A stretch of 64,000 bases of DNA, taken from the IMG/VR virus record IMGVR_UViG_3300037258_001185, positions 20,252 through 84,251 of that record. One strand, given 5' to 3'. This DNA is from a virus. A program made the position numbers and the translations under genes. The notes under the pieces were generated by a model that saw nothing but the letters and a program-made list of their open reading frames with translations, did not search any database and was not told the origin of the DNA. Numbering within the stretch: the stretch's first letter is position 1; each line of letters opens with the position of its first letter. Shown here piece by piece: positions 4,400 through 64,000 of this stretch.

Positions 4400-5377
4400 A
4401 TGAGGAAGAAACGCGGGAGACCGGCGGCGATCGACCGTCCGCATTATTCCAGCGGACGCGTCGAGAACCCGGCACATCAGGATATCGCCTCGCCATTTGC
4501 CGCAGCGCGCCGCGTCGCGCTCGCCGACCCGCGAGCCGCCGGCACCGCGGTAAACAAAGCGGAGGCCGCCGCCGGCGCCGCCGGCAAGGCATTCGGTCCG
4601 GAAGACGCAGCTCGCGCCATCGCGGGTATCGCGGTCGATGCCGACCGCGCGAGCACCGCCATCGGCCGCTACTTCCTGTGGTCGTTGCATCACGGCACCA
4701 AACACCGCCTGACCGAAGCGCAATACCTGGCCGGCTGCCGATACGCCAGCCAGCACGGCATGGCCTGGGCGGGCTTGCATGATGACCTCAAACGGGTCAG
4801 CGGCGACGTCCTGAGGGACATCGTGGTGCCGCGGCGACACCCGCCTGCGGCTCTCGGCAACCACGTCGCGACCACGCCGGCGACAGACCTTAACCCCCGG
4901 CCGAAACCCAGCCCGGACGAGCTGATCGAGTATCGGCAGCGGCAGTGGCATCGGTACATCGCGGCCAGGGAAACGCTGCTCCAGATCGGCTTGGCCGTGA
5001 CCCTGGCCGTCGAGGATCTCGTCATCGAGGGACACGATCCATGGTGGCTCAGTCCGTCGTCCTGCCGTCTTGGGGAGACCGAGGCGCGGCACCGCGCGGC
5101 CGAGGTGTTTCATCAGCGCTCGATGCTGGTCGACGGCCTGACGGCGCTGGCCCAACTCTTCGGCACCGATAAAGAGGTCGCCAGCAGAGAGGGCGGCGAT
5201 CCATCGGGCGCATCCGACACGCCGCGCGCTCCGCCCCCTCAGGCGACGCGACGAGCGCAGGCCAGGCTGCCGATCATTCTCACCAGGGACGACGCAAACC
5301 TTAGCGCCGGCGCCATCGTGGCATCGGTGAACCGCCTGAAGCAGCAGCGCAATAGCGTGGGGGGTTGCGATGGATAA
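4400..5377 (+). CDS. Hypothetical protein (possible late-gene regulator)
   Basis: Long ORF after an AT-rich intergenic region; function guessed from position only. Confidence 0.5.
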   Translation: MRKKRGRPAAIDRPHYSSGRVENPAHQDIASPFAAARRVALADPRAAGTAVNKAEAAAGAAGKAFGPEDAARAIAGIAVDADRASTAIGRYFLWSLHHGTKHRLTEAQYLAGCRYASQHGMAWAGLHDDLKRVSGDVLRDIVVPRRHPPAALGNHVATTPATDLNPRPKPSPDELIEYRQRQWHRYIAARETLLQIGLAVTLAVEDLVIEGHDPWWLSPSSCRLGETEARHRAAEVFHQRSMLVDGLTALAQLFGTDKEVASREGGDPSGASDTPRAPPPQATRRAQARLPIILTRDDANLSAGAIVASVNRLKQQRNSVGGCDG

Positions 5378-7955: not shown

Positions 7956-9327
7956 GCCGCGATCGCCGGACAGAATTGCCGCCATCACCGCCGCGGTCGA
8001 GGATTGCCTGCGGGAGGGCTTCACGCCGCCCGGCCAATTCGGCGGGCGCGGCTCAGCCATTCGGGAGGCCGCACGTCGCCTGGACGTCAACCCGACGACG
8101 CTTCTCGGCACGGTTCGGGGCGAGGAAGAAAAATTCCGCTGCAACAAGCCGGCCCGCGTGCCGGACTGGAGCCTGTACGCGCCGCCGGACGAGAGCTCGC
8201 GGGTAGTCGGCGCCAGCGGTCACACGCTGAAGGGCGTCTCGATCCTGACCGACGCCAAGGGCGTCGAGATGGGGCGCTGGACAAAAACCGCGCGGGCCGG
8301 CCGCGATGATGCGGACGTCCAGCACCTCCCTGACCCCAAGACGATCAGCAAGATCAGCACGCTCAAGGACCAGGACGGCAAGGTCACCCAGCAATGGGTA
8401 ACGGAGAAGCCGGCAGATGCCGAGCGGGAGGCGCTGTGGTTTGCTGCGGCTGCGGCGCTGGCCGCGGCGTTGCCGCCGGCGCCTCCGATAGCCGGGCCCG
8501 CGAACCAGCCGAGCGCTGACCTGCTCGCGCTCTATCCGGTCGGTGACCACCACAATGGCCTCTATGCCTGGTGGCGAGAAACTGGCGCATCCTACGACCT
8601 CGATATCGCCGAGAAGCTGCTGGCGCGGGCGACCGACGAATTGATCGCGTTGCTGCCACCCTGCGAGACATCGCTGATCGCGCTGCTGGGCGATTATTTC
8701 CACTACGACAGCCTGGAGCCGGTGACGCCGACGAGCCGCAACATGCTCGACAGCGACGGCCGCTACGCCAAGATGATCGACGTCGGCATGCGCAGCGTGC
8801 GCCGGATGATCGAGCGCGCTGCCGAGCGCCACAGCCGCGTCCATGTCATCGTCGAAACCGGCAATCACGACCTGTCGAGTTCGATCTTTCTCGCGCTGGC
8901 GCTCCACCAGATTTACCGCGACAACCCGCGGATCACCATCGACACGTCGCCGGCGCATTTCCACTACTTCGAGTGGGGCAAGGTGCTGATCGCCACGCAT
9001 CACGGCCACGGCGTCAAGATGCAAAACCTGCCGCTGATCATGGCCGCCGATCGACGTGAGGCGTGGGGCCGAACCAAATACGGCTACTGGCTGACCGGCC
9101 ACGTCCACCATGCCGAGACGCAATCGGCAGTCGTCAACAAGGATTTTGCCAACGTTTCGGTCGAGAGCTTCCGTGTCCTCGCCCCGGTCGACGCCTGGGC
9201 AGCCCAGAAAGGCTACCGCTCGATCCGGGACATGAAAGCCATCGTGATGCACCGTGAGTTCGGCGAGGTCGCGAGATTTTCGGTGAAACCAGAAATGTTT
9301 GATACGGGGATGGAGTTGGCCGCATGA
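7945..9327 (+). CDS. HTH plus calcineurin-like metallophosphoesterase
   Basis: GDHH, GDYFH, GNHD, HHGH and GHVHH motifs. Confidence 0.8.
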   Translation: MPTKPRSPDRIAAITAAVEDCLREGFTPPGQFGGRGSAIREAARRLDVNPTTLLGTVRGEEEKFRCNKPARVPDWSLYAPPDESSRVVGASGHTLKGVSILTDAKGVEMGRWTKTARAGRDDADVQHLPDPKTISKISTLKDQDGKVTQQWVTEKPADAEREALWFAAAAALAAALPPAPPIAGPANQPSADLLALYPVGDHHNGLYAWWRETGASYDLDIAEKLLARATDELIALLPPCETSLIALLGDYFHYDSLEPVTPTSRNMLDSDGRYAKMIDVGMRSVRRMIERAAERHSRVHVIVETGNHDLSSSIFLALALHQIYRDNPRITIDTSPAHFHYFEWGKVLIATHHGHGVKMQNLPLIMAADRREAWGRTKYGYWLTGHVHHAETQSAVVNKDFANVSVESFRVLAPVDAWAAQKGYRSIRDMKAIVMHREFGEVARFSVKPEMFDTGMELAA

Positions 9328-57443: not shown

Positions 57444-58649
57444 ATGACCAGCACTCTCACGATCGCCGCCGGCCAGATCTTTGACCTGACGACGCTGACG
57501 GTCGACCCGACGGGCACCGTGAACAGCGACGGCTCGATCTCGTATGACGTGCTCAACAACAGCGGCACGCTGATGATCCTGGCGGGCGACGCCGACCGCT
57601 TCGGGACCATCGTCGGCAACGGGGTCATCAGCATGCACCCCGGTGGCCTTCTGGAGGCGAAAGGGCCCGTCGACACGCGGCACGCCCTCAACTTCGTCGT
57701 GGCCGGCGCGGAGCTCCTCGTCGACCGCCCGGACCTCAACCCGTACATCGTCGAGCAGATCGCGGGCTACAGGATGGGATCGACGGTCCTGCTGGGCTCC
57801 CCAGGCACGCCGACCGGCCACGCCCTCGCGATCAGCGGCGTGCTGCCGTCCGGCAGTTGGATGACAAGCCCCACCGGGACCTACGTCCTGTGGATGCACC
57901 CGAACGGCAACCTCGTCGCCTACCGCAACCCGGTGTTCGGCGGGTCCTTCGCCACAGCGGCCTGGTCGACAGGCACGAGCGGGCACGCGGGCGCCTACGC
58001 CAAGCTCGCGTCCAATGGCGCGCTCTGCGTCTACGACGCGTCCAACAACCTGCTGTGGGCCGCTGGCGCAGGCCTCGGCGGCACGACGGCCGGGATCGAG
58101 GATACGGGCAACGTCGTCCTCTACGACTCGACCGGGCTGCCCGTGTGGTGTGCCAGCGACGCCAAGTTCACCTGGAGCTACGCCGGCCAGACCGGCGACG
58201 CGACCGGCGTCATCCTCGGCCAGGCGTACGTCACTGACCCGGTGACAGTGCCGGCGGGGGCCTGCGTCGTGCGCAACGGCGGGACCAACATGCAGGGAAC
58301 GCTGCTGGCGGCGTCGATGGGCTACGCCCTCGTGATGGCCACGGGGGGCGCCGCGCAGCTCTACTACACCGGCTCGGCCTCCCTGCTCCCGGAGGTCGGC
58401 CAGGCAACGCCGCCCACCTGGAACCTGCTCTGGTCGACGGGGTCGGTCTGCACCCACGGCAAGCCCCACATGGACATGTGCGCCAACGGCACCCTGACCG
58501 TCTACGACGGGGATGGCTCCGTGAAGTGGTCGGTCGGCTCCGGCCTTGGCGCCACCAAGTTCGTCCTGACCGACAGCGGCGCCATGCAGTTGCAAAAGGC
58601 GGACGAAACGGTCGTCTGGGATAGCGGCACCGCCGGCCGCACGAGCTGA
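57444..58649 (+). CDS. Tandem bulb-type (B-/MMBL) lectin domain protein
   Basis: Six degenerate QxDGNLVxY...W units (NGNLVAY, NGALCVY, TGNVVLY, GGAAQLY, NGTLTVY, SGAMQLQ). Confidence 0.75.
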   Translation: MTSTLTIAAGQIFDLTTLTVDPTGTVNSDGSISYDVLNNSGTLMILAGDADRFGTIVGNGVISMHPGGLLEAKGPVDTRHALNFVVAGAELLVDRPDLNPYIVEQIAGYRMGSTVLLGSPGTPTGHALAISGVLPSGSWMTSPTGTYVLWMHPNGNLVAYRNPVFGGSFATAAWSTGTSGHAGAYAKLASNGALCVYDASNNLLWAAGAGLGGTTAGIEDTGNVVLYDSTGLPVWCASDAKFTWSYAGQTGDATGVILGQAYVTDPVTVPAGACVVRNGGTNMQGTLLAASMGYALVMATGGAAQLYYTGSASLLPEVGQATPPTWNLLWSTGSVCTHGKPHMDMCANGTLTVYDGDGSVKWSVGSGLGATKFVLTDSGAMQLQKADETVVWDSGTAGRTS

Positions 58650-58707
58650 TCCCACCATATCGCCCCGCTTCCCCGATCCGATCACCCTCACCTGAAGGAG
58701 CTTCGAC

Positions 58708-58914
58708 ATGAACTACATCATCCAGATCAACGCCGAGGCCGCGACGCTCGTGGCCCAGGCCGACGCCACCGCGACCGCCGTGAGCCTGATGGTCGACAGC
58801 AACCAGCAGGCGCATTGGGCGCCGTACAACACCTCCGGGATGTCGGCGCTCGCAACCAGCGACCATAGCTTCGGGCAACTCCTGGTCTGGGCGCTCAACA
58901 ACAAGTGGTCGTAG
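58708..58914 (+). CDS. Hypothetical protein
   Basis: AAGGAG RBS. Confidence 0.55.
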   Translation: MNYIIQINAEAATLVAQADATATAVSLMVDSNQQAHWAPYNTSGMSALATSDHSFGQLLVWALNNKWS

Positions 58915-58963
58915 GCGGCGTCACCGTCGCGCGGCTCGCGTCACACAAAAACAGGAGAAGCCC

Positions 58964-59635
58964 ATGACAGACATATCGATCGTCAACCGTTCGACTGTCG
59001 TGACGGACGCCGGTATTGCGACGCTGCTGCCGGCGCTACAGACCCAGATCAGCCGTGATTTCGCGCCGTTCTGGGGGACCGGCACCACCCTTCATTTCGT
59101 CGGAAGCGGCCAGCCTGACCCGGGGCATTGGCGATGCCTCGTGCTGGATCACAGCGACCAAGCCGGCGACCTCGGGTATCACATCGACAACAACGGCGTT
59201 CCCGAGGCTCGGATCTTCGCCGCCGAAGACATGAAAGACGGCAGCCTGCTCAGCGTCACGGTCAGCCACGAGCTGCTCGAGATGCTCGCGGACCCGACGG
59301 CCAATCGCGTCTTCCAGATCGGCACCACGACCTATATCGTCGAGGTCGCCGATCCGGTGGAGGCCGATGATGACGGCTACGACATCGACGGCGTGCGCGT
59401 GTCGAATTTCGCGACGCCGCGATATTTCGGGATGACGAACCCGGGCAATGACCCGCGGTTCGATTTCCGCTGGCTGCTGACGGCCGGCATCCCGACGCTG
59501 CGACCGGGCGGCTACGTCATGTTCGATTCCGGCGGCGTGTGGCACAGCACGATGGCGCGGCACGCCGACGGGTCGCTCGGCTGTCGCGCCTTGCGGTCGG
59601 GGCGCTCACACTATCGAGCGTCGCTGCCGCACTAA
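58964..59635 (+). CDS. Putative zinc-metallohydrolase-like protein
   Basis: LGYH...SHELLEMLADP...EVADPVE. Confidence 0.6.
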   Translation: MTDISIVNRSTVVTDAGIATLLPALQTQISRDFAPFWGTGTTLHFVGSGQPDPGHWRCLVLDHSDQAGDLGYHIDNNGVPEARIFAAEDMKDGSLLSVTVSHELLEMLADPTANRVFQIGTTTYIVEVADPVEADDDGYDIDGVRVSNFATPRYFGMTNPGNDPRFDFRWLLTAGIPTLRPGGYVMFDSGGVWHSTMARHADGSLGCRALRSGRSHYRASLPH

Positions 59636-59657
59636 CCGATCAATCCCCCAAGCGAAC

Positions 59658-59688
59658 CGCCCGGCCCTCCGGGGTCGGGCGTTTTTTT
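59658..59688 (+). terminator. Intrinsic terminator insulating the tRNA unit
   Basis: cgcccggccc-tccg-gggtcgggcg plus T7. Confidence 0.85.
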
Positions 59689-59769
59689 GATACCTGGGGC
59701 ATCACAGCGGAATACAAGTTGGGGTGATTTCGTTTGTGAAACTGCGCCGAATATGCCAGAAGTTCACCG

Positions 59770-59931
59770 ATGTTCACGAAAGACCCCATAGCCCGCATCG
59801 CCCCGCGGGCGGTCGCGACACAGACGCCCGCCAGCCCCGAACACGGGCGGCAAGGCGGCTCATATCGCGCGACCTTTTGGAATTCGTGCGATCCGCGCCA
59901 GCGGGCCGAGGACGGGGGAACGGTGATCTGA
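59770..59931 (+). CDS. Putative 53-aa leader peptide of the tRNA array
   Basis: MFTKDPIARIAPRAVATQTPASPEHGRQGGSYRATFWNSCDPRQRAEDGGTVI*; stop 26 nt before a terminator; no SD seen. Confidence 0.55.
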   Translation: MFTKDPIARIAPRAVATQTPASPEHGRQGGSYRATFWNSCDPRQRAEDGGTVI

Positions 59932-59971
59932 TCCGTTCCAATGATCGCAAGATCGCAAACCCGCCCGGTCC
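59903..59971 (+). promoter_or_regulatory. Predicted antiterminator
   Basis: GGGCCG-a-GG-a-CGGG (59903-59916) pairs with CCCG-CC-CGGTCC (59960-59971), enclosing two hairpins. Confidence 0.55.
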
Positions 59972-59989
59972 AGCCGAGGCGGGTTTTTT
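59957..59989 (+). terminator. Intrinsic terminator (attenuator) upstream of the tRNA array
   Basis: aaacccgcc-cgg-tccag-ccg-a-ggcggg plus T6. Confidence 0.85.
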
Positions 59990-60092
59990 GATGGGCGCGC
60001 AAGGCGCCACGACACGGCAGGTTCGGTGGAAGCCCCGAGCCCGAGACCGGAGAGATGCCGGCTGCAGCGACATTCGTTTGTCAATTTCACAT

Positions 60093-60169
60093 GGGCCTGT
60101 AGCTCAATCGGGAGAGCACCTGCTTTGCACGCAGGAGGTCGGGGGTTCGATTCCGCCCCAGGTCCACCA
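60093..60169 (+). tRNA. tRNA-Ala(TGC)
   Basis: Cloverleaf, G3:U70, CCA. Confidence 0.95.
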
Positions 60170-60171
60170 AC

Positions 60172-60195
60172 CATTTCGGTGACGTCACCGAAATG
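60172..60195. repeat. Perfect 24-bp palindrome
   Basis: CATTTCGGTGAC|GTCACCGAAATG. Confidence 0.9.
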
Positions 60196-60200
60196 ATCAT

Positions 60201-60275
60201 GCGGCAGTAGCTCAGAGGTAGAGCGTCACGTTGCCAACGTGGATGTCGGCGGTTCGATTCCGCTTTGCCGCTCCA
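60201..60275 (+). tRNA. tRNA-Gly(GCC)
   Basis: Cloverleaf, U73, CCA. Confidence 0.95.
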
Positions 60276-60281
60276 GTTTGA

Positions 60282-60356
60282 TGCCGTGTAGCTCAGTGGG
60301 AGAGCAGCGCCCTCATAAGGCGCTGGCCGGCGGTTCGATCCCGCCCACGGCTACCA
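60282..60356 (+). tRNA. tRNA-Met or Ile2 (CAT)
   Basis: gcgcc-CTCATAA-ggcgc; U1:U72 mismatch; CCA. Confidence 0.9.
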
Positions 60357-60362
60357 GTTTGA

Positions 60363-60436
60363 TGCGGGCAGGCCAAGCGGCCCTTCCGGTCTCATAAGCC
60401 GGAACCGTCCAGGGGCAGTACCTGGGCCCGCAACCA
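60363..60436 (+). tRNA. tRNA-Met(CAT), possibly initiator-like, atypical T loop
   Basis: tgcgggc/gcccgca acceptor; T loop GGCAGTA; CCA. Confidence 0.75.
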
Positions 60437-60438
60437 AT

Positions 60439-60510
60439 CGTGGCGTCGGCTTAGTGGCGCGAGCCTATGTCGAAGCCGCACGGCCCGGCGGCGAAATTCA
60501 CCGGGCACCA
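60439..60510 (+). ncRNA. Structured element ending in a minihelix plus ACCA
   Basis: cggctt/aagccg stem with a GCGA tetraloop hairpin; gcccgg/ccgggc-A-CCA. Confidence 0.45.
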
Positions 60511-60514
60511 ATTC

Positions 60515-60590
60515 GCCGGTCTAGCAAAGGTGGTCCTCGCGCGTCGTTGAAAGCGACGACATCTCCGTTCGATCCGGAGGGCCGGCACCA
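60515..60590 (+). tRNA. tRNA-Phe(GAA)
   Basis: cgtcg-TTGAAAG-cgacg; CCA. Confidence 0.9.
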
Positions 60591-60593
60591 ATC

Positions 60594-60668
60594 GCGGGCG
60601 TAGCTCAGTGGTAGAGCCGGAGTTTTCCAAACTTCGGGTCGTCGGTTCGATTCCGACCGTCCGCTCCA
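60594..60668 (+). tRNA. tRNA-Gly(TCC)
   Basis: Cloverleaf; CCA. Confidence 0.93.
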
Positions 60669-60676
60669 GTTCTTAT

Positions 60677-60753
60677 TCCCATCGGTCCCTGCTGGTAGGG
60701 GAGCGAGCCTGTTAAGCTCGTCGGTCGTGGTTCGAGTCCACGGATGGGAGCCA
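60677..60753 (+). tRNA. tRNA-Asn(GTT)
   Basis: cgagc-CTGTTAA-gctcg; G73; CCA. Confidence 0.9.
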
Positions 60754-60756
60754 TTT

Positions 60757-60829
60757 GCGGGCGAGCAGCGGCCTGCCGGCGGGACTCCAAACCCCGGCTG
60801 AGGGAGTTCGACACTCTCCGCCCGTGCCA
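60757..60829 (+). tRNA. tRNA-Trp(CCA)
   Basis: CTCCAAA loop; G73; CCA. Confidence 0.85.
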
Positions 60830-60833
60830 GTAC

Positions 60834-60908
60834 GCGTCGCATCCCAAACGGTGAGGGCCCGGCCTGCAAAACCGGAGATACGCGGTTCAATTCCGCGGCG
60901 ACGCTCCA
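60834..60908 (+). tRNA. tRNA-Cys(GCA)
   Basis: CTGCAAA loop; U73; CCA. Confidence 0.9.
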
Positions 60909-60910
60909 GT

Positions 60911-61022
60911 TCGCGCAGCGGCGTGGAGAACACGCATCATCGCATCGGGTGCCTGGGTCGGATGCACCGGCCTCTACGGAGACGGGCGGAAACAGGAAGC
61001 CGGCTTTGGCCGGCCTGCGCGA
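60911..61022 (+). ncRNA. Structured tRNA-like ncRNA (possibly skipping-rope-like)
   Basis: 8-bp closing stem tcgcgcag/ctgcgcga; gcgtg-gagaa-cacgc and gccgg...ccggc arms. Confidence 0.5.
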
Positions 61023-61030
61023 TACTCTAT

Positions 61031-61107
61031 GGTGACGTGAGGGAGCAGGCGAACCCGGCCGGCTGTGAACCGGCCTTCGAGCGGATCGATACCGCTACGT
61101 CACCCCA
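61031..61107 (+). tRNA. tRNA-His(GTG) with encoded G-1:C73
   Basis: g-gtgacgt/acgtcac-c-CCA; CTGTGAA loop. Confidence 0.88.
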
Positions 61108-61108
61108 T

Positions 61109-61184
61109 GCCGGCGTAGCTCAGCGGTAGAGCAATCGCCTTGTAAGCGATCGGTCGCGGGTTCGATCCCTCGCCGCCGGCTCCA
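61109..61184 (+). tRNA. tRNA-Thr(TGT)
   Basis: Cloverleaf; CCA. Confidence 0.93.
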
Positions 61185-61191
61185 GTTTTTT

Positions 61192-61267
61192 GGCGCGTTC
61201 GAGGACAGCTTCCTCCGCCCGGCTCTGACCCGGGTAGCACACCGGGCAGCATGGTGGCGCGCTTCCA
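61192..61267 (+). tRNA. tRNA-Gln(CTG), atypical T loop
   Basis: cccgg-CTCTGAC-ccggg; T loop GGCAGCA; CCA. Confidence 0.72.
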
Positions 61268-61270
61268 TTC

Positions 61271-61342
61271 GGCCCGTGGCCCAGGTGGGTAACGCGGCCC
61301 TTGAAGCCGCACGGCTTGGTTCGACACCGAGGCGGGCTCCCA
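61271..61342 (+). tRNA. tRNA-Gln(TTG), C33
   Basis: gcggc-CCTTGAA-gccgc; CCA. Confidence 0.78.
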
Positions 61343-61345
61343 TCT

Positions 61346-61421
61346 CGCCCGTTCGTCTAGCAGTTCTGGACACCCGCCCCTCAAGCGGGAGGTAAGGGGG
61401 CAGCACCCTTACGGGCGGCCA
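61346..61421 (+). tRNA. tRNA-Glu(CTC), C33, atypical T loop
   Basis: cccgc-CCCTCAA-gcggg; Glu-type TCGTCTAG D arm; T loop GGCAGCA. Confidence 0.75.
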
Positions 61422-61425
61422 ATCC

Positions 61426-61512
61426 GAGAGCGTGGCCTTGTAGGGAATCCTGGCACACCTTGCGCGTTCAGACCGCGTGGCTTTGCGAGTTCGAGTCTCG
61501 CCGCTCTCACCA
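61426..61512 (+). tRNA. tRNA-Leu(CAG), unusual architecture
   Basis: gcgcg-TTCAGAC-cgcgt; short variable region; insertion before the D arm; A73, CCA. Confidence 0.75.
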
Positions 61513-61516
61513 ATTC

Positions 61517-61605
61517 GGATGGTCAACCGGCCGCCCGGCCGGCCCCGGTTGGAAACCGGGCGGCACCCGCAAGGGCGTGCGGATCGAGACCGCGGCCATC
61601 CTCCA
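61517..61605 (+). tRNA. tRNA-Ser(GGA)
   Basis: Long variable arm with GCAA loop; CCA. Confidence 0.82.
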
Positions 61606-61610
61606 CAAAT

Positions 61611-61700
61611 GGGTGGTCAACCGGACAAGCGCGCCGGCTCGGCTTCGAAGCCCGGAGGCGCCCGCAAGGGCGTGGGGAGCATGCCCTCGGCCACCCGCCA
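61611..61700 (+). tRNA. tRNA-Ser(CGA), atypical T loop
   Basis: TTCGAAG loop; long variable arm; G73, CCA. Confidence 0.72.
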
Positions 61701-61706
61701 GACAAC

Positions 61707-61794
61707 GGAGAGCGAAGTGGACAAGCGCGCCACGGCCGGCCTGAACCCGGCGCGAGCCGCAAGGCTTGGAAGGCAGGATCTCCGCTCTCCGCCA
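61707..61794 (+). tRNA. tRNA-Ser(TGA), C33, atypical T arm
   Basis: gccgg-CCTGAAC-ccggc; long variable arm; G73, CCA. Confidence 0.72.
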
Positions 61795-61861
61795 GCTCGA
61801 GCATTGCGACGGCTCGGCCACCAGGTCGTGCCGAGCGGCAAGCGCTATTCGCGCAAGGGAA

Positions 61862-61952
61862 GGGTGGCACAAGCGGAAGGCGTACCGCGGCGGGTTGCTA
61901 ACCCGATCGTGCCTTTTGCAGGCATTCGGTTCAAATCCGAGGCCGCCCGCCA
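61862..61952 (+). tRNA. tRNA-Ser(GCT)
   Basis: TTGCTAA loop; long variable arm; CCA. Confidence 0.85.
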
Positions 61953-61953
61953 C

Positions 61954-62028
61954 GCTGGCGTAGCTCAGTGGCAGAGCACCTCATTGGTAATGAGGTGGCC
62001 GTCGGTTCGATCCCGACCGTCAGCACCA
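61954..62028 (+). tRNA. tRNA-Thr(GGT)
   Basis: Cloverleaf; CCA. Confidence 0.95.
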
Positions 62029-62033
62029 GTTTC

Positions 62034-62121
62034 GGGGAAGTGTCACCGGCGGGACGCCGGACGCGGGCTGTAAACCCGTCGCCCTTCGGGGCGCGCTGTT
62101 CGACTCAGCCTTTCCCCACCA
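62034..62121 (+). tRNA. tRNA-Tyr(GTA)
   Basis: CTGTAAA loop; variable arm with TTCG loop; CCA. Confidence 0.85.
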
Positions 62122-62122
62122 C

Positions 62123-62198
62123 GCTCCTGTAGCTCAATGGCAGAGCAGGCGGTCGATAACCGCCCGACGATGAGGTTCGATTCCTCCCGGGAGTACCA
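62123..62198 (+). tRNA. tRNA-Ile(GAT), C33
   Basis: ggcgg-TCGATAA-ccgcc; CCA. Confidence 0.88.
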
Positions 62199-62202
62199 GT
62201 TT

Positions 62203-62277
62203 GGGGGCGTAACTCAGCGGCAGAGTAGCGGCCTCTTAAGCCGTCACGCGTGGGTTCGAGTCCCACCGCCCCCACCA
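62203..62277 (+). tRNA. tRNA-Lys(CTT)
   Basis: Cloverleaf; CCA. Confidence 0.95.
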
Positions 62278-62338
62278 GTTCGCGCGCTCGACGGGGCGCG
62301 CGCCGCGGCATAGGTCCAATGGCGGCCGCGGCACCTTT

Positions 62339-62413
62339 GCGCACGTCGCACTCTGGGAGTGCCGCCGGCTGTCTACCGGCCGCAGGCGGGTTCGATTCCC
62401 GTCGTGCGCGCCA
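62339..62413 (+). tRNA. tRNA-Asp(GTC)
   Basis: gccgg-CTGTCTA-ccggc (U37); G73, CCA. Confidence 0.88.
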
Positions 62414-62417
62414 TTCG

Positions 62418-62492
62418 GCCGGCGTGGCGACAGGAGCGCCACCGAGAATCCTAGTCTCGGCTCTCCCGGTTCGAGTCCGGGCGTCGGCTCCA
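62418..62492 (+). tRNA. tRNA-Arg(CCT)
   Basis: cgaga-ATCCTAG-tctcg; CCA. Confidence 0.8.
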
Positions 62493-62493
62493 G

Positions 62494-62568
62494 CGGAGCG
62501 TAGCGCAGCGGTAGCGCGCCTGCTTTGGGAGCAGGACGTCGTCGGTTCGATCCCGACCGCTCCGACCA
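62494..62568 (+). tRNA. tRNA-Pro(TGG)
   Basis: C1:G72; cloverleaf; CCA. Confidence 0.95.
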
Positions 62569-62575
62569 GATTTAA

Positions 62576-62643
62576 CGGAGGGTAGCCCAGCGGCTAAGGC
62601 GCCTCGTTCGGGGCGAGGAGATCGAATCCCTTCCTTCCGCCCA
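62576..62643 (+). pseudogene. tRNA-Pro(CGG) missing the 5' strand of the T arm
   Basis: Intact acceptor, D and anticodon arms; about 8 nt missing at agatcga^atccctt. Confidence 0.75.
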
Positions 62644-62649
62644 TTTTGT

Positions 62650-62722
62650 GCCCGGCTCGCCAAGCGGCAAAGGCATCGCGTTTACACCGCGACATTCGGG
62701 GGTTCGAGTCCCTCGCCGGGTA
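62650..62722 (+). tRNA. tRNA-Val(TAC), CCA not fully encoded
   Basis: tcgcg-TTTACAC-cgcga; only A73+C before the next tRNA. Confidence 0.88.
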
Positions 62723-62723
62723 C

Positions 62724-62798
62724 GGGCGCGTAGCTCAGTGGCAGAGCGCCTGCTCGACATGCAGGAGGCGGCCGGTTCGATTCCAGCCGCGCCCACCA
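62724..62798 (+). tRNA. tRNA-Val(GAC), C33
   Basis: cctgc-TCGACAT-gcagg; CCA. Confidence 0.9.
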
Positions 62799-62801
62799 TT
62801 T

Positions 62802-62877
62802 CGCCCGGTCGTCTACAGGATAGGATTTCTGGCCTTTCAAGCCGGGGACACGGGTTCGAATCCCGTTCGGGCGCCCA
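62802..62877 (+). tRNA. tRNA-Glu(TTC)
   Basis: CTTTCAA loop; CCA. Confidence 0.88.
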
Positions 62878-62883
62878 AACACT

Positions 62884-62957
62884 GCCCTCGCCGGCGGAAA
62901 CCGGCGGCAGGCCTACGAAGCCAGCTCGCGGGGGTTCGACTCCTCCCGGGGGCGCCA
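62884..62957 (+). tRNA. tRNA-Arg(ACG)
   Basis: CTACGAA loop; reduced D arm; CCA. Confidence 0.8.
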
Positions 62958-62963
62958 ATCACC

Positions 62964-63036
62964 GGCCTCTGCGCTGGGACGCGGGCGGGCCTTCTAAGCC
63001 TGCCGCCGCTCGGTTCGATCCCGAGAGAGGTCGCCA
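62964..63036 (+). tRNA. tRNA-Arg(TCT)
   Basis: CTTCTAA loop; reduced D arm; CCA. Confidence 0.8.
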
Positions 63037-63040
63037 TCAT

Positions 63041-63113
63041 GCGCTCGCCGGCGGATCCGGCGCCGCGGCTCCGAACCGCGGACGCGAAGGTTCGACTCCT
63101 TTCGGGCGCGCCA
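63041..63113 (+). tRNA. tRNA-Arg(CCG)
   Basis: cgcgg-CTCCGAA-ccgcg; reduced D arm; CCA. Confidence 0.8.
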
Positions 63114-63117
63114 ACAC

Positions 63118-63201
63118 GCGGCGGTGGCTGGAATTGGTAGACACGTCGGTCCCAAAAACCGATCCGCAAGGGTGAGGGTTCGAGTCCCTCCCGCCGCACC
63201 A
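63118..63201 (+). tRNA. tRNA-Leu(CAA), C33
   Basis: tcggt-CCCAAAA-accga; Leu-type D loop; variable arm; CCA. Confidence 0.85.
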
Positions 63202-63206
63202 TCAAC

Positions 63207-63279
63207 GCCGCCGTGAACGGATTTCCGTGTCCGCCTTTTAAGCGGAAGCAAGCAGGTGAGAATCCTGTCGGCGGCACCA
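63207..63279 (+). tRNA. tRNA-Lys(TTT), atypical D and T loops
   Basis: tccgc-CTTTTAA-gcgga; T loop TGAGAAT; CCA. Confidence 0.78.
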
Positions 63280-63281
63280 AT

Positions 63282-63356
63282 GCTGGCGTAGCTCAGTCGC
63301 AGAGCAGCCGCCTCGTAAGCGGCAGGTCGTCGGTTCAAGTCCGACCGTCAGCTCCA
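63282..63356 (+). tRNA. tRNA-Thr(CGT)
   Basis: Cloverleaf; CCA. Confidence 0.95.
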
Positions 63357-63373
63357 CTTTCACCGAGGTCGAG

Positions 63374-64000
63374 ATGCTCGCTGTCGCTGCTGATCGGCCT
63401 CAGGCCGAGCGAAGGCCGCTGCGCGGCCTCAGAACCCTTGTGCTCAACGCCGACTTCCGGCCCCTCAGCGCCTGGCCGCTGAGCCTGATGCCGGCGCAAG
63501 AGGCGGTGCACGCGCTGCTGCGCGATCGCGTCGCCGCCGTCGAGAACTGGCCGGATGCCTTCTATCGCTCGCCGTCGATGTCGATCGCGGTCCCCAAGGT
63601 CGTCGCGCTGCGCGAATACGCGCCCGTTCGCGGCGAGCCCAAGTGCACCCGGATCAACATCTACCTGCGCGACCGCTTCCGTTGCCAGTATTGCGGCGAG
63701 CGGTTCGAGCGCAGCGAGTTGACCTACGATCACGTCATCCCGCGCGCCAAGGGCGGCAAGACCGTGTGGACGAACATCCTGACGGCATGCGTCGGCTGCA
63801 ACGGCCGCAAGCGCGACCAGTTGCCGAACTTCTCCGGCCGCAAGGGCGTCGCCGGCCGGGACGGCTCGCTGCGGCCGCTCAAGGAGCCGCGGCGCCCAAC
63901 CGGCGCCGAGCTGGCGCGCGCCGGGCTGGAACTGCTGCCGGATGACGTGATTGCGGATTATGGTTCTTGGCTATATTGGCATACCGAGTTGAAGCAGTGA
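63374..64000 (+). CDS. HNH endonuclease (McrA-like)
   Basis: TLVLNADFRPL...RDRFRCQYCG...TYDHVIPRAKGG...NILTACVGCNGRK. Confidence 0.92.
   Translation: MLAVAADRPQAERRPLRGLRTLVLNADFRPLSAWPLSLMPAQEAVHALLRDRVAAVENWPDAFYRSPSMSIAVPKVVALREYAPVRGEPKCTRINIYLRDRFRCQYCGERFERSELTYDHVIPRAKGGKTVWTNILTACVGCNGRKRDQLPNFSGRKGVAGRDGSLRPLKEPRRPTGAELARAGLELLPDDVIADYGSWLYWHTELKQ

Follow-up and report, generated by a model that had tools for sequence, protein, structure and literature searches.

How does a phage that carries tRNAs for all 20 amino acids keep their genes under control? The question is raised by 64,000 nucleotides (nt) of IMG/VR virus record IMGVR_UViG_3300037258_001185 (the window, by which we mean the whole stretch analysed). 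On its + strand lies a tRNA array (60093..63356; ARAGORN, Rfam), the presumed regulated genes, preceded by a cassette made of a short open reading frame (ORF) and a hairpin terminator. A first-pass annotation, made from the letters alone, had read this cassette as a leader-peptide attenuator that would switch on the array when translation stalls. After comparison with related loci, we consider it likely, and well short of certain, that the cassette is indeed a ribosome-mediated (leader-peptide) transcription attenuator gating the phage tRNA array. That its near-pangram leader by itself monitors the entire tRNA pool, the shortage of nearly any tRNA switching on the full set, is a real possibility, which we stop short of calling probable.

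We first describe the elements of the window, all of which are on the + strand. Intrinsic terminator 1 (59658..59688), which ends the upstream structural and lysis transcription unit, consists of a 10-pair stem (59658-59681) followed by T7, and was the one site called by a consensus terminator scan of 58500-64000; the annotation had likewise taken it to separate the lysis region from the tRNA array. Beyond it lies the leader ORF (59770..59931; ORF list and composition counts), which begins with ATG, comprises 53 codons and ends with a stop codon at 59929-59931. It encodes 19 types of amino acid, Leu being the sole absentee, and direct reading of the peptide showed that all 19 occur in codons 1-40. 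ORF and composition were therefore both as annotated. The leader has no Shine-Dalgarno sequence and is probably leaderless. The promoter-like site ahead of it (59734..59762), recognized by homology with relatives, comprises a -35 hexamer TTGTGA at 59734-59739, already picked out by the annotation, a 17-nt spacer and CAGAAG in the -10 position (59757-59762). The latter sits 7 nt 5' of the ATG. An E. coli-type promoter scan of 58500-64000 returned 0 sites, the promoter-like site of the leader included, and is therefore uninformative for these promoters.

The leader ORF is followed by intrinsic terminator 2 (59960..59989; segments 3 and 4), with a stem at 59960-59983 (10 pairs and one bulged A, 59960-59969 being paired with 59973-59983) and T6 at 59984-59989. 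This second terminator, which the annotation had placed before the first tRNA and described as strong, was found in centroid and enforced folds and in a 45-nt fold (-22.1 kcal/mol, small hairpin included), and was not called by the consensus scan of 58500-64000. The minimum-energy fold of 59880-59995 was the antiterminator, in which 59903-59917 is paired with 59959-59971 (duplex energy -17.0 kcal/mol). The 5' strand of this antiterminator (segment 2; 59903..59917) ends 12 nt before the stop codon and was also the best duplex partner in an unbiased search of the leader. As the annotation had it, this fold, formed by the end of the ORF with the 5' arm of the terminator, excludes the terminator and encloses two hairpins. 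One is GGAACGG/CCGTTCC (59917..59939; 59917-59923 paired with 59933-59939), with the stop codon in its loop; the other is the small hairpin GATC-GCAA-GATC (59943..59954), of which locus L029 has a similar version in the equivalent position. When the two states were enforced on 59880-59983, their energies were -47.2 kcal/mol for the antiterminator and -46.5 kcal/mol for the terminator; for the whole leader they were -97.4 and -98.6 kcal/mol, respectively. The two states are nearly isoenergetic, and the leader RNA of the window should therefore be bistable. The z-scores of the window folds were -2.2 and -2.75.

We also compared 58900-64000 with Rfam 15 (E up to 1) and found no match to a T-box or other cis-regulatory family, apart from chance-level matches of Plastid-ycf2 to the tRNAs. 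A candidate match to the small RNA (sRNA) RcsR1 (RF02552) at 59907-59989 was rejected, because it scored 23.5 bits (E=0.14) against a gathering threshold of 60; it is probably due to chance. In seven relatives, all 138 of the 138 gathering-level matches were to tRNAs.

Taken by itself, the window is suggestive and goes only marginally beyond chance. To evaluate the diversity of the leader peptide, we kept the ATG fixed and shuffled the rest of the ORF by dinucleotides, retaining stop-free shuffles only. The 19 types of the window compare with 16.4 ± 1.3 in 5000 such shuffles (P=0.043), and the antiterminator duplex, when searched over the whole 212-nt leader, had a P value of 0.22. Both of these statistics are weak alone; the strength of the case comes from the relatives.

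There was no cultured relative to lean on. A blastn search of the phage collection with 59400-60400 gave tRNA-level matches only (of 340 records, none covered 80% of the query), a tblastn search with the HNH endonuclease encoded behind the array gave at most 43% identity, and Rhizobium phage RHph_TM30, the one record examined, has no tRNAs beside its HNH gene. Relatives were reached through this HNH protein; the leader DNA and the upstream protein yielded none. Fifteen IMG/VR loci combine a syntenic array with an HNH protein of 56-68% identity, and 12 of these loci include the start of the array. For L260 and L261 the array start was taken from their records, and L022, which begins inside the array, was left out. 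A metagenome scan gave 3 of 80 loci with at least 61% HNH identity, one of which (L181) includes the array start, the two others (L179 and L180) being too short. The window, the 12 IMG/VR loci, L260, L261 and L181 make up the 16 group-A loci, which represent about 13 sequence clusters; the contigs that carry them measure 20 to 122 kb, and seven fall in the range of 94-122 kb. Wherever ARAGORN calls the end tRNAs, the syntenic arrays begin with tRNA-Ala(tgc) and finish with Thr(cgt) just before the HNH gene.

The cassette, defined as an ORF that starts with ATG and is 26-53 codons long, with a G+C-rich hairpin and T4-T6 behind it, was present upstream of the array in 16/16 group-A loci. The hairpin with its T-run was present in 17/17 leaders examined (these 16 and that of L095, a distant phage). 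The cassette sits 63-369 nt before the first tRNA called by ARAGORN; in L260 the first tRNA, detected with relaxed thresholds only, begins 230 nt past the T-run. The leaders of different subgroups can barely be aligned with one another. The anatomy of the cassette and its conservation are direct observations, and they are what the annotation had suggested looking for, namely a conserved upstream ORF and stop position ahead of homologous arrays.

The position of the ATG relative to the promoter is also conserved. In 11 of 14 group-A loci, a hexamer matching TTGACA in at least 4/6 positions (at least 5/6 in 9 of these loci) stands 35-38 nt ahead of the ATG; L260 and L261 have TTGACA 39 nt before it, and the -10 position, as judged by eye, ends 6-10 nt before the ATG across loci. 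Most leaders have no Shine-Dalgarno sequence, and the GGAGG of L024 overlaps the presumed -10. Such an arrangement is compatible with a leaderless mRNA, as the annotation had considered possible, and the leader is probably translated without any 5' leader. Leaderless mRNAs are documented in Caulobacter (PMC4117421). The frame of the ORF is visibly constrained: between close pairs of loci, the indels within the ORF are of 3 nt (L030/L031) and 6 nt (L024/L027), and 1-nt indels are found just past the stop codon. The leaders of L260 (402-500) and L261 (1163-1261) differ in 5 of 32 residues in a region where the DNA is 97.7% identical over 260 nt; the sequence of the peptide therefore seems unconstrained. 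Each of these two leaders keeps 18 types of amino acid.

We searched in each locus for the best partner of the terminator 5' arm in the whole stretch that begins 30 nt ahead of the ATG and runs up to the terminator. This partner was at most 14 nt from the stop codon in 15/16 group-A loci, its 3' end lying between 12 nt before and 14 nt after the first base of the stop codon; a 16-nt interval amounts to 8-12% of the region searched. The exception was L031, where another site was better by 0.5 kcal/mol. In 9 of 15 loci the duplex surpassed those obtained from 1000 dinucleotide shuffles (P<0.05). The terminator stems vary from locus to locus (CCCGCC, CCTCCC, GCCCCC, CCCTCTCC and others) and the strand at the end of the ORF varies in step. 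The covariation of the antiterminator, another check put forward in the annotation, is in this way directly visible in the DNA: the stems differ and the partner still lies next to the stop codon. When the sequence is shuffled, the frame opened at the ATG closes at the partner site in only 3.5-8.5% of cases per locus, a figure that is partly circular, the partner being sought only near the stop in this calculation.

To model the effect of a ribosome, we deleted from the leader RNA everything up to 13 nt beyond the codon in the A site and calculated how probable the terminator stem was in the remainder. For the window this probability was near 0 at many stall positions in codons 5-40 and amounted to 0.99 from codon 41 to the stop codon, in agreement with the annotation's remark that the 19 types of amino acid all appear by codon 40. 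The same switch was found in 8 of 14 loci. Masking is a partial test, because equilibrium folding ignores the co-transcriptional order of events.

An excess of amino-acid diversity was observed across the family. The number of types exceeded the shuffle mean in 16 of 17 leaders, one locus being below it, and Stouffer's Z was 5.34 over 14 clusters (4.50 without the window and L095). Rare types occur about once per leader: among 15 leaders, Trp was present in 12 (6.5 expected) and His in 14 (10.4 expected; 17 residues in total), and Arg was under-used (48 residues vs 73.6 expected). In the same 15 leaders, Trp, Glu, Tyr, His, Lys, Gln and Asn were each found in more leaders than expected. There is no run of one regulatory codon. 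The lower-G+C phage L095 has a 39-codon ORF, this one leadered, with all 20 types. L017, another distant phage, has three ORF-plus-terminator cassettes (ORFs at 2837-2911, 4728-4826 and 9146-9226), and each of these leaders contains all the amino-acid types of its own tRNA block (4/4, 9/9 and 9/9, respectively). The fractions of leader residues matching their own block were 0.48, 0.77 and 0.68, as compared with 0.12-0.44 for the other blocks. This matching favours the sensing of tRNAs over a mere gauging of translation.

From these features we infer a mechanism, and with it the start site, the translation of the leader, its coupling to transcription, which way the switch works and the signal to which it responds physiologically. 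A host-type promoter (-35 at 59734) would start the RNA at the ATG at 59770 or directly beside it, and the 53-codon leader would be translated leaderless. The footprint of a ribosome reaching the stop codon (59929-59931) would cover 59903-59917, so that the terminator (59960-59989) could fold and transcription would end before tRNA-Ala, the first tRNA of the window array. If a ribosome were stalled earlier, for want of a charged tRNA, 59903-59917 would remain free to pair with the 5' arm of the terminator, and once this antiterminator had formed RNA polymerase would continue into the tRNAs and the HNH gene. Since nearly all amino acids are represented in the leader, each about once, the gate would open when almost any tRNA ran short, be it through starvation, decay of host tRNAs or anticodon nucleases, and restored decoding would close it again.

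Several observations weigh against this interpretation, in addition to the two weak statistics of the window mentioned above. Some concern the promoter: the -35 and -10 of the window are poor, and the promoter assignment is ambiguous in L019. Others concern the switch. The duplex was no better than those of shuffled sequences in L021, L030, L031 and L181, as well as in the window, and was borderline in L026. In L095 the partner strand is 28 nt past the first base of the stop codon, beyond the footprint of a terminating ribosome. The check by masking of the ribosome footprint, which the annotation had called for, bore out the idea in the window and in the loci that switch, and failed to do so in the others: in L026, L027, L028, L030 and L095 (5/14) the terminator was favoured at every ribosome position, and L021 switched only in part. 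The distribution of the cassette is a further point: in group-B arrays (described below) and other distant arrays, our detector turned up no cassette where the array begins, save in L095 and perhaps L017. The device is therefore not universal. The remaining points have to do with the composition of the leaders and with the spacer, and are best considered together with the alternatives to which they are relevant.

A first alternative accepts the attenuator, and proposes that it is a general gauge of translation, responding to ribosome supply, ribosome-targeting antibiotics or the rate of initiation, the variety of codons being incidental. The excess of diversity is indeed modest in each locus (z about 1-3, with one locus below the shuffle mean), and the leaders are not true pangrams, as they contain 16-20 types. 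Asp was found in 6 of 15 leaders (10.4 expected) though the arrays carry tRNA-Asp, and there was no match between the amino acids missing from a leader and those missing from its array. As the arrays can decode nearly everything, a formal comparison of codons with anticodons would have no power in the window. The annotation's idea of an all-codon leader finds statistical support in the family as a whole, though the window itself reaches only P=0.043, and Asp is absent from 9 of 15 leaders. Against a mere gauge of translation are the consistency of the excess over the 14 clusters, the spread of the rare amino acids, one per leader, and the correspondence of each L017 leader with its own tRNA block. 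We think this alternative unlikely.

A second alternative, which we regard as distinctly unlikely, is that the ORF is an independent small leaderless protein gene, or the RNA a small RNA, followed by a constitutive terminator, and that the array is transcribed from a separate promoter located between terminator 2 and tRNA-Ala (59990-60092). Within subgroups this spacer is conserved, and the weak likeness to RcsR1, an sRNA with three hairpins, goes in the same direction. Moreover, the spacers of some relatives contain TTGACA-like hexamers (a perfect TTGACA in L027 and L032, TTGACT in L026), so that a second promoter is possible in these three. In the window, however, the sole -35-like hexamer of the spacer is at 60078-60083, 9 nt before tRNA-Ala; at this distance it cannot start transcription upstream of tRNA-Ala, as the start would fall inside that gene. 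Furthermore, the peptide is barely conserved, as illustrated by the pair L260/L261, a plain terminator would give no role to an antiterminator complementarity fixed at the stop codon, and the cassette lies directly upstream of the tRNA array in every group-A locus. As to a non-coding leader RNA that would sense a ligand or uncharged tRNA directly, in the manner of a riboswitch or T-box, with a fortuitous ORF, it could account for the alternative terminator and antiterminator folds, which are typical of riboswitches too, and for the lack of a Shine-Dalgarno sequence, but it is highly improbable in view of the fixed distance between promoter and ATG, the closure of the frame at the antiterminator in 15/16 loci (about 5% expected), the in-ORF indels that preserve the frame, and the absence of a conserved aptamer-like core in the alignments and of an Rfam family match. 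On the whole, the comparative tests (conservation of the upstream ORF and its stop codon, co-variation of the antiterminator) were favourable to the leader-peptide attenuator proposed in the first-pass annotation.

With respect to the genes that this putative attenuator would control, ARAGORN detected 24 tRNAs in the window array with default settings and 30 on the + strand with relaxed settings, and Rfam gave one further tRNA at 63207-63276. The annotation had counted 36 tRNAs forming a complete set; the set is complete as far as the 20 amino acids are concerned, and the count of 36 is plausible and was not fully reproduced. Default ARAGORN leaves gaps in the array at 60357-60514, 60909-61031 and 61343-61861. 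The relaxed search adds tRNAs for Trp, Tyr, Ser (two) and Arg(acg), as well as an unusual one of 87 nt; several of the tRNAs are divergent. The spacer that separates terminator 2 from the array (59990..60092, +) was examined by alignment and consensus folding with L019 and L026. It contains a conserved hairpin at 60020-60041, with a 7-nt loop (TGGAAGC), and a second hairpin at 60047-60061; 4 of 20 predicted pairs co-vary among the window, L019 and L026, some of this co-variation being in the first hairpin. Other subgroups have different conserved spacers ending with GTAGCAC. The conserved hairpin could be a processing signal, a relic of a tRNA arm or a protein-binding site.

The HNH endonuclease gene (63374..64000, +; Pfam HNH_5 and HNH) begins 17 nt past the last tRNA and runs to the end of the record, and the consensus scan called no terminator between the array and this gene. 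Homologues of the HNH protein are found on alphaproteobacterial chromosomes (42-48% identity, 80 returned) and in large tRNA-rich phages. In the arrays that we call group B (HNH at 36-45% identity; L033-L041, L049 and L050), the HNH gene is inside the array, where it comes after Thr(cgt) and additional tRNAs.

The IMG/VR record from which the window is taken comprises 84,251 bases, of which the window is the final 64 kb, and is labelled provirus. The G+C content of the window (62-70%) and the presence, revealed by Pfam and PHROG searches, of a gene transfer agent (GTA)-like tail protein (Phage-tail_3 and Rcc01698_C) and of a GH25 endolysin point to a siphophage of soil Alphaproteobacteria. The sole sequencing run found to contain the stretch is soil metagenome DNA, which may be its source. 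A 223-aa protein encoded upstream belongs to no Pfam or PHROG family and has no relative in viral contigs. One 120-kb record (G001, L259/L261) has direct terminal repeats; its leader lies about 1.3 kb short of the contig's right end and its array resumes at the left end, indicating that the array spans the ends of the assembly. These repeats and the seven related contigs of 94-122 kb make the provirus label of the window record doubtful, and the label may not mean an integrated element.

If the leader does monitor the entire tRNA pool, the device would be a self-regulating counter-defence, in which a full replacement set of tRNAs would be triggered by a host anticodon nuclease or, for instance, by starvation, and no attenuator of tRNA genes would have been known before it. 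If the reading of the cassette as an attenuator is correct, it would explain how phages, temperate ones especially, can carry 30-40 tRNA genes without a constant cost, and would tie phage tRNA arrays to the sensing of tRNA damage or shortage, hence to the arms race with tRNA-cleaving defences. It would also offer a compact and portable reporter of decoding stress for nearly any amino acid. To our knowledge, leader-peptide attenuation has been described only for amino-acid operons and a few other protein-coding operons, and full-text searches of the main text of the articles available gave no account of a leader-peptide attenuator ahead of tRNA genes.

The known leader-peptide attenuators include trpL, hisL, leuL and pheL and the multivalent thrL and ilvL of enterobacteria. 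The cassette resembles these attenuators, and in its anatomy those of trp, his, thr and ilv, in having a promoter, a short ORF, a strand close to this ORF that can pair with the 5' arm of an intrinsic terminator, and a stop codon placed such that a terminating ribosome would mask the antiterminator strand. It differs from amino-acid operon attenuators in that it is borne by a phage, that the genes behind the terminator are tRNAs rather than enzymes, that about 1-2 codons for nearly every amino acid replace the run of one codon, and that the leader is probably leaderless. An attenuator of this kind is also known outside the enterobacteria, in trpL of Sinorhizobium (PMC6614838).

Other devices show more limited similarities to the attenuator proposed here. 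In the whiB7 leader and in leaders of the erm/cat type, which are sensors of general translation stress, stalling of a ribosome in a short upstream ORF lifts a downstream block; these leaders answer drugs or particular stalling peptides, and control resistance genes. In the present case, by contrast, tRNAs are the output and the sequence of the peptide lacks conservation. The T-box riboswitch binds uncharged tRNA directly, without a need for translation, and causes antitermination when charged tRNA is short. The proposed attenuator would similarly antiterminate in answer to a shortage of charged tRNA, and would differ from the T-box in depending on translation.

With regard to its output, the closest parallel is the trn operon of Anabaena sp. 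PCC 7120, which also provides a complete extra set of tRNAs, normally kept silent and turned on by an impairment of translation (PMC8421152). Its control involves direct repeats over the -10 box and the start site, and the repressor TrcR (PMC8421152; PMC10272220). Passage searches of these two articles did not find 'attenuat', 'leader' or 'terminator' in PMC8421152, nor 'attenuat', 'leader peptide', 'uORF' or 'terminator' in PMC10272220. The Anabaena array is controlled through the repeats in its promoter and TrcR, unlike the phage array, for which we propose control by a translated leader.

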